This document shows, one piece after another, positions 1,656 to 5,710 of a stretch of 5,713 nucleotides of DNA (the first letter of the stretch is position 1; each line of letters opens with the position of its first letter). Location: NCBI GenBank assembly GCA_019056805.1, contig DXJG01000018.1:1-5713 (forward strand). Reading direction: 5' to 3'. Origin of the DNA: Candidatus Baldrarchaeota archaeon (GTDB taxonomy: Archaea; Asgardarchaeota; Baldrarchaeia; Baldrarchaeales; DXJG01). A program made the translations under genes and the position numbers. The notes under the pieces are model-generated. The model worked only from the letters and a program-made list of their open reading frames with translations, did not search any database and was not told the origin of the DNA.

Positions 1656-1763
1656 ATGTTTTGCGCAAAATTTGTTTTGCTAATAAATAGTTTACAGCAG
1701 TTTATATCCGGAATGAGATTTTTATCAAGGAGTTGTATAGGTATTATATACAATACTATATAG
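1656..1763 (+). CDS. Possible 35-aa small ORF (MFCAKFVLLINSLQQFISGMRFLSRSCIGIIYNTI)
   Basis: ATG 4 nt after AGGTGA (1646-1651); the TAG stop overlaps the next SD (TAGGTGA). It also overlaps palindromes and a promoter, so it may be non-coding. Confidence 0.3.
   Translation: MFCAKFVLLINSLQQFISGMRFLSRSCIGIIYNTI
1733..1753 (+). promoter_or_regulatory. TATA box (TTATATAC 1744-1751) inside the inverted repeat TTGTATA-N7-TATACAA
   Basis: TTATATAC lies 21 nt before ATG 1773, the same spacing as TTATATAC 2734-2741 before ATG 2763. Perfect 7-bp arms at 1733-1739 and 1747-1753. Confidence 0.6.
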
Positions 1764-1772
1764 GTGATTTGA

Positions 1773-2342
1773 ATGGCTGAAAAAAGCTACAGGATGAAGC
1801 GTGTTAGGAGAGGTGGTAGATATTATGTTTATGTTTGGGGTAAAGATGGAAAGTTGATTACAGTTAAAAAATGGAGTTCTAAGAAAGAAAAAAGAGAGCA
1901 AATTAAAAAAGAGATTAAAAGGAAAATAAGAGTAGAGATTGAATATAGATATACGGTTTGTGGGAAGAGATTAATAGATTATTTTTCGTTGAATTCTGCA
2001 ATTGCATATTATTTTTATGAAAAAGAAAGTTGGATGATTAATTTGCTTGAAGATATACATAACGCCATTGTTGAATATTACGAGAATTTTATGGATATAC
2101 TAAGCAGCTCTGAAGGACTTGATGATTGCTCTCAATTCGATTTTTCTGAGTTAGAGGAATTGAATGTAGTAGACTGTGATAGTGTTTATGGTTTGTTAAT
2201 TAGCTACTCATGGGATATTGAGAAAGATACAATTAAGTATTATCTAAAAGCAGACTGGGTTACAAAACGAGTAATAGCTAAAAAGGGTGGAATGTGGGAT
2301 TTAGTGCTAAAGAAATGGGGGTTTAAGTATGATAACGATTGA
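1773..2342 (+). CDS. Hypothetical 189-aa protein with a very basic N-terminal beta-hairpin (RVRRGGRYYVYVWGKDGKLITVKKW) and an acidic central/C-terminal part; putative DNA-binding partner of the primase-like protein
   Basis: SD AGGTGA 1762-1767. K/R-rich first ~60 aa, D/E-rich middle. Overlaps the next gene by 14 nt. Confidence 0.8.
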   Translation: MAEKSYRMKRVRRGGRYYVYVWGKDGKLITVKKWSSKKEKREQIKKEIKRKIRVEIEYRYTVCGKRLIDYFSLNSAIAYYFYEKESWMINLLEDIHNAIVEYYENFMDILSSSEGLDDCSQFDFSELEELNVVDCDSVYGLLISYSWDIEKDTIKYYLKADWVTKRVIAKKGGMWDLVLKKWGFKYDND

Positions 2343-2682
2343 TCTTGATGTTTTCAAGAGGTTTAGCAATAATCATTATTATGCTGTTCATGTAGTTCAG
2401 AAAATTATGTTTAATTTACTTACAATTTCACCATATAAGGTAAGAGTTTCAGCATCGGGAAAAGGGTTACATATTGTTTTACCGATTGACAATGAGGTAG
2501 TTAGAGAGTGTCATGATGATTATTGTAGGTTTAAAGCAGATCAGGAAAGAGAAAAGTTAGGGTTGTTTACAAATATTTTATTCAAAATAAAAGATGACAA
2601 AAAAGCTGGAGAATGGAAATATATCAAAAGTGAAATAGATGTGGTAGAGTTTATTCAAGAATTTTTTAGGTTAAATTTTTAG
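2329..2682 (+). CDS. Minimal archaeo-eukaryotic primase (AEP / prim-pol)-like catalytic domain, 117 aa
   Basis: Motif I hhhDhD = ITIDLD (D5, D7); motif II = SASGKGLHIV (S41, H48); candidate motif III acid in RECHDD (D63/D64). SD GGGGGT 2317-2322. No helicase, PriCT or Zn domain is visibly fused. Confidence 0.7.
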   Translation: MITIDLDVFKRFSNNHYYAVHVVQKIMFNLLTISPYKVRVSASGKGLHIVLPIDNEVVRECHDDYCRFKADQEREKLGLFTNILFKIKDDKKAGEWKYIKSEIDVVEFIQEFFRLNF

Positions 2683-2687
2683 GCAAA

Positions 2688-2695
2688 TTTTTTTT
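2688..2695 (+). terminator. Archaeal-type oligo(T) terminator
   Basis: T8 run 5 nt after the stop of 2329..2682 and just upstream of the next promoter. Confidence 0.55.
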
Positions 2696-2762: not shown

Positions 2763-3101
2763 ATGACAGAGGAAGGTGTTGAGGAAAAAATAGAAATTTA
2801 TGAGTGTCGGTATTGTGGTAAAGAGTACAAAAGTAAGTGGGGAGTTCAACGACATGAGGAAGTGTGTTCAGAAAGACCAAGGGTTGAAGAAAAATCAAGT
2901 GACTCAAAGCAGGAAGCTGATGTGGATGACTCTGAAGGGTTTGAAATCTTTGATGATCTTGAAGATGATGAAGAAATAGAGTATGAATGTACGGAGTGTG
3001 GTTATGTGTCTGGTAGCTCATTTGAGATATGCCCCAGGTGTGGTGAAGAGCTGGAATGGGAAGACGATGAGGAGGATTGGGGGAAGGAGGAAGAATGGTG
3101 A
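2763..3101 (+). CDS. Highly acidic double zinc-finger protein, 112 aa: C2HC finger (C15-x2-C18-x12-H31-x3-C35) plus C4 zinc ribbon (C76-x2-C79-x10-C90-x2-C93)
   Basis: Ligand spacing read directly from the translation; 42 D/E versus 12 K/R. Confidence 0.85.
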   Translation: MTEEGVEEKIEIYECRYCGKEYKSKWGVQRHEEVCSERPRVEEKSSDSKQEADVDDSEGFEIFDDLEDDEEIEYECTECGYVSGSSFEICPRCGEELEWEDDEEDWGKEEEW

Positions 3102-3340
3102 TTATGAAGAAATGGATTCAGAAGAGCATTAAACATCCTGGAAGAGTTAAAAAATATCTTAGAAGACTTTATGGAGATAAAGCATTTACAAAGGATGGAA
3201 AAGTAAAACTTAGTTATATAAAGAAAGCAATTAAACACTTAAAACGAATGCCAGAAAGTAAAAGAGCAGAAGGATTGTTAAATGCTTTGCAGTTAGCTAT
3301 TAGATTACACAAAATAGCTAAAAGGAGGAGGAGAAAATGA
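3095..3340 (+). CDS. Small very basic protein, about 81 aa; putative DNA-binding or virion core protein
   Basis: Start revised to ATG 3095, 4 nt after GGAGG (3086-3090); ATG 3104 is an alternative. 28 K/R versus 4 D/E. The N-terminal KKWIQKSIKHPG recalls a KKWIQxAIKxPG motif of small basic phage proteins (recall only, unverified). Confidence 0.8.
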   Translation: MVIMKKWIQKSIKHPGRVKKYLRRLYGDKAFTKDGKVKLSYIKKAIKHLKRMPESKRAEGLLNALQLAIRLHKIAKRRRRK

Positions 3341-3492: not shown

Positions 3493-3909
3493 ATGCCTGA
3501 TAGACGATTTACTTTAGAGGATATTATCGAGTATGAGGTAGAAAGGAGGTTGAAGAAAAAAGAAGGGGTAAGTGGTGGTGATTTTGATTTGAAGGAGTTA
3601 TTTCAACTAATAAAGTTTTTTGTTAAATTGAAAAGTGAATTTAGTGGATTGATACCACAACAACAGTCAAATTTAGGTGTACCTCAGGATGTTAAAATAG
3701 TTGAAAAAGTAGTCGAAAAACCAGCTAAATCTCAAATTACTGGTGAACAAATTTATGAAGCAATAATGCAAATGTTAGCTATGATTAAGCAGGTATATGG
3801 AGATATACCAATCTCTAAAGTTCAAGAGATGGCTGAAGCACACAGGAATCAGATTATTGAGATGATTGACGCTCAGTTTTCACAAATGGTTGGTGAGAGT
3901 AGTGGTTAA
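3493..3909 (+). CDS. Hypothetical alpha-helical protein, 138 aa, directly upstream of and overlapping the ATPase
   Basis: SD GAGGTGA 3483-3489. Two amphipathic helical regions joined by a Q/P/K/E-rich linker. Confidence 0.8.
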   Translation: MPDRRFTLEDIIEYEVERRLKKKEGVSGGDFDLKELFQLIKFFVKLKSEFSGLIPQQQSNLGVPQDVKIVEKVVEKPAKSQITGEQIYEAIMQMLAMIKQVYGDIPISKVQEMAEAHRNQIIEMIDAQFSQMVGESSG

Positions 3910-4504
3910 GAAGATCGTAATTTGTGGTTTACAAGGGTCGGGAAAGACATTTTTGACTAAATACTATTTTCTCAAGAAAACGAAGTATCATCTTGTTATT
4001 GACCCGAATGACGAATATAAAGGATTTATTCGATATGTGCCAAAATATGTTGGTGATTTTGAGAAGTTAAAAGATGAGCTAAAACTTGTTCTTAAAAAAT
4101 TAGTATTTCCAAATGTCAATTGGATTGAAAAGCAAAAAAAGAAGAAAAAGGCTTTAAAAATGGTTGTAATTGATGAGTTGGATTTATTTGCTCCGTCCAG
4201 AAAGCAATTGGGGCAGGAAATAAGAGACTTATATGTGAGGTGTAGACACATGGATTTAGATTATTTGATCGGAATAACAAGAAGAATAACAGATGTTCAC
4301 CCGTATATTCATGAAGTTTCGGAAAACTTAATAATTTTTAAGCAAACTGGGTTAAACGATATGCGGAGATTAAATGAAATAGCTGGAAAGGGTACATCAG
4401 AGTTAATGAGAAAAGAAATTGATTTTAATAAACATAACTTTTTGTTTATTGATATTGATAGGAATGTTAAGGTGGTGAACACATGGGCGGAGCTAAATAT
4501 TTAG
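3902..4504 (+). CDS. Viral genome-packaging ATPase, FtsK/HerA superfamily (A32 / PRD1 P9 / STIV B204-like), about 200 aa
   Basis: Walker A GLQGSGKT near the N-terminus, strand-2 motif LVIDPNDEY, Walker B MVVIDELD, arginine-finger region RCRH, sensor-like GITRR, then NLIIFKQ. Start revised to GTG 3902, 5 nt after GGTGA (3892-3896). Confidence 0.85.
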   Translation: MVKKIVICGLQGSGKTFLTKYYFLKKTKYHLVIDPNDEYKGFIRYVPKYVGDFEKLKDELKLVLKKLVFPNVNWIEKQKKKKKALKMVVIDELDLFAPSRKQLGQEIRDLYVRCRHMDLDYLIGITRRITDVHPYIHEVSENLIIFKQTGLNDMRRLNEIAGKGTSELMRKEIDFNKHNFLFIDIDRNVKVVNTWAELNI

Positions 4505-4888: not shown

Positions 4889-5194
4889 ATGGCAAAAAGG
4901 AAAAGAGGTAGGAAGAAAGGGATTGTTAGTGGACAGTTTACAGACTATCTGATTGCAGGGTTGGTTAAGAGCTTCACTGAACCTTTACTGGCTAACTATA
5001 TTGGAAACGCAAACCTCGTTTCTGGTGCAGTGAAAATAGGGATAGGTTATGGTGTACAGAAGTTTATCGGGGGAAATGTTGCTAAATACATAAAAATGGC
5101 TATGCTCATTGATGGTGCTGAAGACATTGTGTATGGACTGTTTAGAGGTGGACTACAGGCACAAGGGCAGTCAGGATTTGGGGTGGTGGTCTAA
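4889..5194 (+). CDS. Putative virion internal-membrane/DNA-binding protein, 101 aa (MAKRKRGRKK tail plus Gly/Ala-rich amphipathic or hydrophobic helices)
   Basis: Basic N-terminus followed by apolar helical segments; first gene of the promoter-led unit, immediately before the putative MCP. Confidence 0.7.
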   Translation: MAKRKRGRKKGIVSGQFTDYLIAGLVKSFTEPLLANYIGNANLVSGAVKIGIGYGVQKFIGGNVAKYIKMAMLIDGAEDIVYGLFRGGLQAQGQSGFGVVV

Positions 5195-5710
5195 ATGGTG
5201 CTGAATTTCTTAGGTCTTGGTGGAAAGCAGTATAAGTATAAATTCCCTTCTGCGATGGTTCTCGGTGATGCAGACAGTACTGGTGATGGTAAAACTCTTT
5301 CAACTGGTGTAAGAGTAGTTGTCTGGAAAAAGAAAGTTGGCGCTCAGCAAATGATGACATTTGGAAAAGGAGCTATTAGGGGAGGAGTTGATGACAGAGG
5401 TATTCTTTATCTGTCACTGAAAGACAATGCAACTACACCAGTTCAGCTCGAGGGTACATTCAGATTTGAGTTGTGGGATGCAAATGATATACCACAGGCA
5501 ATTCTACACGAAGTAAGATCAGAGGAAGTTAGAGGCTCAAAGACAGATAGAACACAGGCATACTTCCTTGAGGAACTGTCACATAAAGGTGTTGCTAAAG
5601 AAGATAGTTATTTGGTTATAACTTTCAAACCAGACGCATCAGCAAACGGAAAGACGATAAAAGACGATAATTCAGACTTCCAGATACCGGTGACTACATT
5701 CTATCTCTGA
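5195..5710 (+). CDS. Probable single-jelly-roll major capsid protein, 171 aa
   Basis: Series of alternating beta-strand patterns (VRVVVWKKKV, MMTFG, ILYLSLKD, GTFRFELWD, ILHEVR, EDSYLVITFKP, SDFQIPV) in an order and size resembling small MCPs of Halopanivirales (P23-77 VP16, SH1 VP7), from recall. Lies two genes downstream of the packaging ATPase; ATG directly follows the upstream TAA, with SD GGTGGT. Confidence 0.65.
   Translation: MVLNFLGLGGKQYKYKFPSAMVLGDADSTGDGKTLSTGVRVVVWKKKVGAQQMMTFGKGAIRGGVDDRGILYLSLKDNATTPVQLEGTFRFELWDANDIPQAILHEVRSEEVRGSKTDRTQAYFLEELSHKGVAKEDSYLVITFKPDASANGKTIKDDNSDFQIPVTTFYL
5650..5670 (+). repeat. Perfect 10-nt tandem duplication (AAAGACGATA x2) inside the putative MCP gene
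   Basis: Read directly: aaagacgata aaagacgata a; the two copies are in different reading frames. Confidence 0.8.

Follow-up and report, generated by a model that had tools for sequence, protein, structure and literature searches.

A 117-residue primase-like protein of a small archaeal virus, with relatives in SH1-like haloviruses, that lacks the N-terminal unit of archaeo-eukaryotic primases

The catalytic domain of archaeo-eukaryotic primases (AEPs) is composed of an N-terminal alpha/beta unit and an RRM-like unit, and all three catalytic motifs reside in the latter (PMC4538821, PMC10345425). In the phage NrS-1 primase-polymerase (7rr4, 6a9w), in the polymerase domain of LigD (LigD-Pol; 2fao, 2iry) and in PriS/Prim1 (7uy8_C, 8b9d, 1v33), 75-135 residues precede motif I, and many of these enzymes carry additional Zn, PriCT, PriL-binding or helicase modules. 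Here we analyzed a stretch of 5713 bases (contig DXJG01000018.1, hereafter the window), assigned to a Candidatus Baldrarchaeota archaeon, which encodes a protein that shows the same three motifs in the same order and whose model superposes on the RRM-like core of those enzymes from motif I to the end of the domain. Unlike the solved AEPs, however, this protein, which we call mini-AEP, has motif I at residue 2-5 and is only 117 residues long in total. Based on its sequence and its predicted structure, we favor, with moderate confidence, the interpretation that it is a catalytically competent minimal AEP which would initiate viral DNA synthesis with the aid of a helper protein, leaving elongation to a host polymerase.

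The 117-residue protein and its family

The three motifs that the earlier note had recognized can be read directly on the forward strand. Motif I is ITIDLD (hhhDhD; residues 2-7, positions 2332-2349), motif II is SASGKGLH (sxH; residues 41-48, positions 2449-2472), and the candidate motif III is HDD (residues 62-64, positions 2512-2520; YDD in the family consensus), which together with the helix that follows it spans positions 2512-2550. We aligned 43 sequences sharing about 30% identity, including the proteins of the haloviruses SH1 and PH1, and found D5, D7, H48, D63, D64 and R67 to be invariant in all 43, while R39, S41, G46, R74, K88 and W96 were conserved in at least 90% of them. Since relatives exist and the catalytic residues are invariant at such a low identity, the motif pattern is more than a chance occurrence. 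R67 and R74 are candidate ligands of the triphosphate.

The family comprises proteins of 110-160 residues, all of them unannotated and without Pfam domains. A word-index search with the 117-residue protein retrieved only the protein itself; an exhaustive HMMER search of 1.8 billion representatives retrieved 26 proteins, nearly all of 109-132 residues, and about 20 further members came from a profile search. In nearly all of the 43 aligned members, motif I follows the start of the protein by no more than a few residues. Outside this size range, the metagenomic protein P0020 (629 residues, truncated at its N-terminus) opens within a domain resembling the mini-AEP (hhalign probability 99%), and an AEP-TOTE-like domain follows at residues 273-354; P0020 may represent a fusion of two AEP-type units.

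The family profile matched three chains of the NrS-1 primase-polymerase (7rr4, 6a9w and 6k9a; E values of 0.003-0.0045), with the DxD, SxSGxGLH and DD motifs aligned, D5/D7 falling on D78/D80 of NrS-1 and SASGKGLH on its SPSGDGLH. Weak matches were also obtained to ligD_pol (profile positions 117-184 of 245), to the polymerase/primase group phrog_2478 and, for single members, to BT4734-like and LigD_Prim-Pol. From the family alignment, AlphaFold2 produced a model with a predicted local distance difference test (pLDDT) score of 94.7 and a predicted template modeling (pTM) score of 0.85, in which helices and a small hairpin come after a beta-alpha-beta-beta-alpha core. When this model was searched against 48,161 PDB chains, the top match was Tetrahymena PriS (Z 5.3 over 98 residues, root-mean-square deviation 3.8), and the LigD polymerase domain of P. 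aeruginosa (Z 5.2 over 95 residues, root-mean-square deviation 3.0, chain residues 665-797) and human Prim1 (Z 4.8) were also among the top matches; yeast Pri1 (Z 3.9), P. horikoshii PriS (Z 3.7), and S. solfataricus PriS and RepB' (both Z 3.3) appeared further down, among unrelated folds. The LigD-Pol of M. tuberculosis aligned over residues 136-267 with 19% identity. These alignments begin at motif I of the target, namely at residue 665 of LigD, 105 of human Prim1 and 136 of M. tuberculosis LigD-Pol. Foldseek searches of the AFDB clusters and BFVD listed small uncharacterised proteins first, followed by proteins named "DNA primase", Prim-Pol, TOTE-AEP, LigD-Pol and BT4734-like. The model thus displays the RRM-like catalytic unit, at modest Z-scores, and has PriS, LigD-Pol and Prim1 as its top PDB matches. 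No single one of these lines is decisive, and we base the predicted AEP assignment on the agreement of motifs, profile and modeled fold.

What sets the family apart is the lack of an N-terminal unit. Motif I is preceded by 75 residues in NrS-1, by 104 in human Prim1 and by about 130 in LigD-Pol, as opposed to essentially none in the mini-AEP family. In the window, the 117-residue frame is closed by a TAA at position 2308, which leaves at most six extra codons before the ATG; therefore, the protein is not a mis-started longer AEP, and its motif I does not lie deeper in a longer protein. Because we looked for the N-terminal unit and found motif I starting at residue 2, with nearly all 43 homologues likewise, we classify the 117-residue protein as an RRM-unit-only derivative of AEPs, that is, a new architectural variant and not a canonical member. 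The proposal that it is a stripped-down AEP is supported by its motifs, by the NrS-1 profile match, by the RRM-like model and by the lack of an N-terminal module.

The gene pair and the upstream protein

The mini-AEP gene (2329-2682, forward strand) follows a gene encoding a 189-residue protein (1773-2342, forward strand), and the two overlap by 14 nucleotides (ATGATAACGATTGA; 2329-2342), exactly as initially described. A Shine-Dalgarno-like GGGGG run is located 8-12 nucleotides before the second ATG. A TATA-box-like heptamer, TTATATA (1744-1750, forward strand), lies 23 nucleotides before the ATG of the 189-residue protein gene, where it could act as a promoter, and a run of eight T (2688-2695, forward strand), the sole one in the window, lies 6 nucleotides past the mini-AEP stop codon and is likely an archaeal oligo-T terminator. 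Both elements had been reported in the earlier note and are indeed present at the ends of the pair. Taken singly, neither is statistically unusual; their placement fits a separate transcription unit. The same heptamer is found 23 nucleotides before the ATG at 2763 and 46 nucleotides before the ATG at 4889, and its presence before the pair and before the next two apparent operons fits an organization in three archaeal transcription units.

We considered whether the two open reading frames (ORFs) might be joined by frameshifting into one fusion protein, and rejected this option. The frame relation between them is +1 in the window and in two related contigs (L009 and L010), and -1 in three others (L013, L014 and L022); furthermore, every mini-AEP gene starts at an ATG of its own, located at motif I, and has a G-rich stretch for ribosome binding. 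We therefore read the two ORFs as encoding two proteins.

The 189-residue protein has the predicted basic/acidic composition, with a pI of 10.4 in its first 60 residues and of 4.4 in the rest. The AlphaFold model shows a three-stranded sheet and a long helix in the N-terminal part of about 60 residues (pLDDT about 80) and is of low confidence in the C-terminal part of about 130 residues. A word-index search retrieved only the protein itself, and a fold search with the low-confidence model gave generic three-strand-plus-helix matches (AP2, Z 4.9; integrase arm domain, Z 3.9; many unrelated ones), so that the "AP2/arm-like" character of the modeled N-terminal domain is only a lead. In addition, a truncated, 5'-open ORF at positions 3-134 of the window (HGGYYFLVVRDETVNF...) shows weak likeness to the basic N-terminal domain of this family (RGRYYLVARDEKGRF in L014; tblastn E value of 0.005 in a tiny database), which hints at a second copy of the basic domain in the virus.

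A catalytic unit that is insufficient alone and relies on an accessory part to bind the template or the initiating nucleotide is a principle known from PriS-PriL(-PriX) and from PrimPol with its Zn-finger/ModN. The 189-residue protein and its family, however, show no similarity to PriL, PriX or PriCT in Pfam and PDB sequence searches; the protein carries neither an Fe-S nor a Zn motif. Its C-terminal domain is poorly modeled, and a distant kinship to these subunits is possible.

In all five closest contexts (the window, L009, L010-12, L013 and L014/15), a gene encoding a protein of about 180 residues lies upstream and overlaps the mini-AEP gene by 4-19 nucleotides. These upstream proteins are homologous, most clearly in their basic N-terminal part of about 45 residues (consensus IKRVRRxGKYYIYAFDKxxGK...KWSSKKEKRE). 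More distant members of the family have other neighbors. In L022 and L023, an unrelated protein of about 230 residues takes this place and is preceded by a P-loop NTPase of about 255 residues (nSTAND3-like, E value of 8e-6); in L016, an nSTAND3-like NTPase precedes an unrelated 193-residue protein, whose gene stops 238 nucleotides before that of the mini-AEP. The remaining upstream genes, encoding a methylase-like protein of 203 residues (L021), a 94-residue protein (L020) and the 399-residue ORF42 of SH1, are unrelated to the 189-residue protein as well. The NTPase-bearing stretches of the second clade are L016 5623-6390, L022 5924-6694 and L023 4764-5492, and this NTPase, which is not the packaging ATPase that these genomes also encode, could be a replicative helicase or an initiator. 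Hence, the idea of a two-gene module holds for the nearest relatives, all five of which keep the pair, and fails for the distant members, SH1 included. As judged from these comparisons, the two-component module is a property of one clade, and the general feature is a mini-AEP with a tightly coupled but variable upstream gene.

Such a distribution bears on the alternative that we take most seriously, namely that the mini-AEP acts without the 189-residue protein, for example as a homo-oligomer or together with the host PriL, PriX or replisome, and that the 189-residue protein is an unrelated DNA-binding regulator or an origin/nucleoid protein that merely shares the operon. This alternative overlaps with our favored interpretation in everything except the partner. 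It would fit the fact that the 189-residue family is confined to the nearest clade, with unrelated neighbors elsewhere (L016, L020, L021, L022, L023 and SH1), and gene overlaps are indeed common in compact viral genomes. On the other hand, a tightly abutting or overlapping upstream gene encoding about 180-400 residues is found in most contexts examined, and the five closest contexts keep the pair despite a protein identity of 25-50%. Moreover, considering what is known of the two-part AEP domain (PMC10345425), a catalytic unit without the second half would be unlikely to hold the template alone. We regard partner-free action as possible, but less probable than a helper-assisted mini-AEP.

SH1-like haloviruses and linear genomes with inverted terminal repeats

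The linear genomes of alphasphaerolipoviruses bear inverted terminal repeats (ITRs) of about 300 bp and terminal proteins, and SH1-like viruses have no known polymerase gene (PMC3622292, PMC12643093). When the mini-AEP family was compared by tblastn with 50,697 phage records, the only matches were the Haloarcula viruses SH1 (ORF41), PH1 (ORF35) and HHIV-2 (protein 30), and HCIV-1 was found in addition with SH1 ORF41 as the query. A mini-AEP homologue is thus present in four of the four cultured alphasphaerolipoviruses. The hhalign comparison of SH1 ORF41 with the family gave a probability of 97.2% and an E value of 3e-11, with all motifs aligned. Furthermore, residues 2-111 of the 117-residue protein matched positions 17-132 of the 163 in the profile of phrog_25650, a group of SH1 ORF41-like proteins (E value of 7.2e-6), and the model of the HHIV-2 protein was the best structural match in BFVD (Foldseek E value of 4e-5, TM 0.65). 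GenBank and PHROGs label these proteins as "ORF 41", "hypothetical protein" or "unknown function", and we found no link to a primase for SH1, PH1 or HHIV-2 in the literature, subscription-only papers being outside our scope.

The halovirus homologues share with the mini-AEP the same invariant residues and a tightly coupled upstream gene. They differ in length, being about 160 residues long with about 15 extra N-terminal and about 30 extra C-terminal residues, in the size of their genomes (28-31 kb), in their halophilic hosts and in the upstream gene itself, since ORF42 (399 residues) is unrelated to the 189-residue protein. The membership of SH1 ORF41 and of its PH1, HHIV-2 and HCIV-1 homologues in the mini-AEP family, established here by sequence and profile comparison, is new.

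Inverted repeats were also found at the ends of smaller genomes that encode a mini-AEP. The 8183-bp contig L011 has perfect inverted repeats of 101 nucleotides at both ends, and L010 shares these arms, extended on one side by another 146 bases; we infer that these ends are assembler output from a linear genome with longer ITRs. L022, a 9.6-kb contig from a distant clade, has imperfect (94%) ITRs of 32 nucleotides exactly at both contig ends, and because they are imperfect and exactly terminal, they are not an assembler artefact. Similarities extend to the terminal sequences. The genomes of SH1, PH1 and HHIV-2 (L024/L025/L026, positions 1-20) begin with CAC(TC)nTGGGGG, L022 (positions 1-32) begins with CACACAG, and the left end of L010 (positions 1-25) carries (CA)7. 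The association of mini-AEP with ITR-bearing linear genomes that end in CAC and dinucleotide repeats is striking, and comes from three lineages only.

The earlier note had seen no helicase, PolB or HUH Rep in the window; Pfam, PHROGs and NCBIfam searches likewise detected none of these there and no second primase, the sole ATPase being of the FtsK/A32 packaging type. None of them was found in the near-complete 8.3-kb relative L010 either, so that neither the window nor this relative was found to encode a canonical replicase. The downstream ATPase gene adjoining the mini-AEP gene in L009 and L010 was considered as a helicase and rejected, as it is orthologous to the packaging-type ATPase. Mini-AEP is the most widely shared gene among the compared elements.

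One might ask whether the mini-AEP is the initiating enzyme of a terminal-protein-linked, that is, protein-primed or end-patching, replication of linear ITR genomes. The first nucleotides would then be added onto a terminal protein or onto a 3' end at CAC(NN)n termini, and the coupled upstream protein of the window's clade could be the terminal protein or an end-binding factor. Short terminal repeats are typical for sliding-back initiation in protein-primed systems, and the CAC and dinucleotide-repeat ends described above, the ITRs of L011/L010 and L022, and the presence of the gene in all four alphasphaerolipoviruses, which have terminal proteins and no polymerase gene found, are in line with such a mechanism. 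However, priming by a protein is not known for any AEP, and the ability to start de novo makes it unnecessary. Furthermore, the ends of the window virus lie outside the contig, the 101-nucleotide length of the L011 ITRs may have been set by the assembler, the upstream proteins are non-homologous between clades, and the correlation comes from the three lineages only. Overall, we consider this mechanism unlikely.

Proposed role, the window virus and its host

Returning to the favored interpretation of a helper-assisted minimal AEP, the gene pair at 1773-2682 would constitute a virus replication module in which the mini-AEP starts viral DNA synthesis, by providing either a primer or the first nucleotides. 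D5, D7 and D63/D64 would bind the metals and H48, R67, R74 and K88 the nucleotide, with the short C-terminal extension that contains R67, R74 and K88 probably holding the triphosphate of the incoming nucleotide. Bulk synthesis would fall to a host polymerase; that the mini-AEP itself carries it out is less likely. A helper is probably needed because the N-terminal alpha/beta unit is missing; it would supply template or origin binding and, in the window's clade, is probably the 189-residue protein acting through its basic N-terminal domain, while in other clades a different upstream protein would occupy the helper position. Conceivably, the C-terminal domain of the 189-residue protein might itself be the lacking alpha/beta unit, in which case the pair would be a split AEP. 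The confidence we attach to this and to the other interpretations is given for each of them on its own, since they overlap and are not meant as shares of a whole.

Several points weigh against this interpretation. No curated AEP family of Pfam or NCBIfam (Prim-Pol, DNA_primase_S, LigD_Prim-Pol, AEP-TOTE, BT4734-like_N) matched above its cut-off, the best sub-threshold scores being those of PF08800 (E value of 0.0079, in 1 of 24 members), LigD_Prim-Pol (E value of 0.27) and TIGR02778 (E value of 0.05, 13 bits against a cut-off of 215). The PDB sequence match is borderline (E value of about 0.003), and structural Z-scores of 3-5 are in a range where unrelated RRM/ferredoxin-like folds also appear. 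In the model, D63/D64 are located between two helices, as opposed to the strand that carries the canonical AEP motif III. No AEP without the N-terminal unit has been characterised so far, and such a protein might lack activity or serve another function, catalysis by the family being predicted from sequence and model. With regard to the partner, the fold of the 189-residue protein is poorly predicted (overall pLDDT of 59.6), and its family is restricted to the closest clade and has no informative Pfam, PDB or Atlas match. Finally, the window is incomplete, and a replicase may lie in the missing part of the virus.

A further alternative is that the mini-AEP is non-replicative, being a degenerate AEP scaffold or DNA binder, a part of a TOTE-like conflict system, or another palm/RRM nucleotidyltransferase with a cyclase- or GGDEF-like role in signalling or anti-defence. 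The modest structural Z-scores, the GGDEF and adenylate/guanylate cyclase palm domains among the structure neighbors in the Atlas, the AEP-TOTE clusters among the feature neighbors, and the distant match to P0020 with its AEP-TOTE domain are compatible with a role of this kind. Nevertheless, the invariant residues are exactly the metal- and nucleotide-binding set of AEPs, which argues against a degenerate domain, the sequence profile matches a primase-polymerase and not cyclases, and PADLOC returned no match. Moreover, the gene occupies the early, non-structural region of small virus genomes, and no other gene of these genomes is as conserved. We regard a non-replicative mini-AEP as very unlikely. 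A HUH Rep can be dismissed, as there is no HxH motif and no conserved Tyr in the invariant and near-invariant columns, and RepB and AAV Rep matched with a Z of only 2.0-2.8.

The window constitutes an entire contig of a metagenome-assembled genome (MAG) of 1.92 Mb in 18 contigs, which is archaeal since it encodes TBP. All genes of the window share one strand, and G is far above C on this coding strand, giving a GC skew of +0.41 as compared with values near 0 in the other 17 contigs. The skew ranges from +0.25 to +0.46 in the relatives L002-L015 and is -0.05 in L016; purine loading of mRNAs in a thermophile and an asymmetric mode of replication are candidate causes. The window further encodes a fusellovirus VP2-family DNA-binding protein (3077-3340, forward strand; PF25632, E value of 7e-27) and an FtsK/A32-type genome-packaging ATPase (3866-4504, forward strand; phrog_2666, E value of 1.6e-17, with weak Pox_A32 and Zot-like matches), besides Zn-ribbon proteins and small membrane proteins detected with Pfam and PHROGs. 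This ATPase marks a virus with an icosahedral-type packaging system and is not a replicative helicase. Given the contrast in strand usage and skew, the VP2-family protein and the packaging ATPase, we conclude that the window is a 5.7-kb, incomplete fragment of a small archaeal virus genome and not host chromosome.

DNA nearly identical to the window is present in metagenomes of marine sediment, subsurface and marine origin from several studies, and the element is therefore real and recurrent; none of the sequencing runs listed as containing it is of RNA. An 8.6-kb contig also carries the 117-residue protein, and the plasmid collection gave no match. We found no CRISPR-spacer-like match to the window contig elsewhere in the MAG and no member of the mini-AEP family in the 400 genomes searched of the same phylum; as both searches were empty, the assignment of the host relies on binning alone.

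Among small archaeal elements, the window virus resembles the ArcVen-P3-type proviruses (Sphaerolipoviridae-related; Makarova et al. 2014, PMC4158269) in gene content, both combining a VP2-like DNA-binding protein with an FtsK-like packaging ATPase and with capsid candidates further downstream. Unlike the window virus, ArcVen-P3 is integrated and has an integrase, and no mini-AEP has been reported for it.

Some further genes of the window deserve mention. Two adjacent ORFs at 139-447 and 468-815 (102 and 115 residues, no Pfam match) look paralogous, sharing Y(Q/E)P(A/N)FETK(W/Q)RR...(E/D)SV(Y/I)CKV. The 164-residue ORF at 1157-1651 was considered as an RHH protein, such as the ones encoded upstream in the relatives L009, L010 and L014, but shows no detectable kinship to them. 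At 2763-3340, a very acidic double Zn-finger protein overlaps the start of the very basic VP2-family protein; its fingers are C2H2-like and Zn-ribbon, with a weak DUF7129 match, and a DUF7129-like protein is also found in the distant L016. The last two ORFs (4889-5710; a hydrophobic, Gly-rich protein of 101 residues and one of 171 residues) are kept in L010 (4410-5167) with 33% and 51% identity, and their location 3' of the packaging ATPase is the position of the capsid genes in sphaerolipovirus-like elements.

A conserved family limited to the RRM-like unit, with its catalytic residues invariant, poses the question of what a minimal primase is and whether its other half comes in trans. If active, a 117-residue, thermophile-type primase-polymerase would also be of interest to enzyme engineers. 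SH1-type haloviruses have been under study since about 2005, and both the papers on them and the 2023 ICTV profile report that a polymerase gene is not to be found; the primase-like gene present in their four cultured members is a concrete candidate for a replication enzyme, one that can be tested because transfection and mutagenesis tools exist for SH1.

A broader and more speculative proposal, in which we have rather little confidence, is that the mini-AEP and its clade-specific partner are the long-missing replication initiator, or even replicase, for linear genomes that bear ITRs and terminal proteins, starting at their CAC(NN)n ends. It would cover SH1, PH1, HHIV-2 and HCIV-1 together with previously unrecognised archaeal viruses of about 8-10 kb from marine sediments. 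If true, only half of the canonical catalytic domain would serve an enzyme of the primase family for protein-primed or end-primed initiation, possibly using a terminal protein. Altogether, the family connects the haloviruses with very small linear viruses that bear ITRs and belong to archaea of marine sediments, one of these viruses having been binned with an Asgard MAG, and this link extends the known replication repertoire of archaeal viruses.

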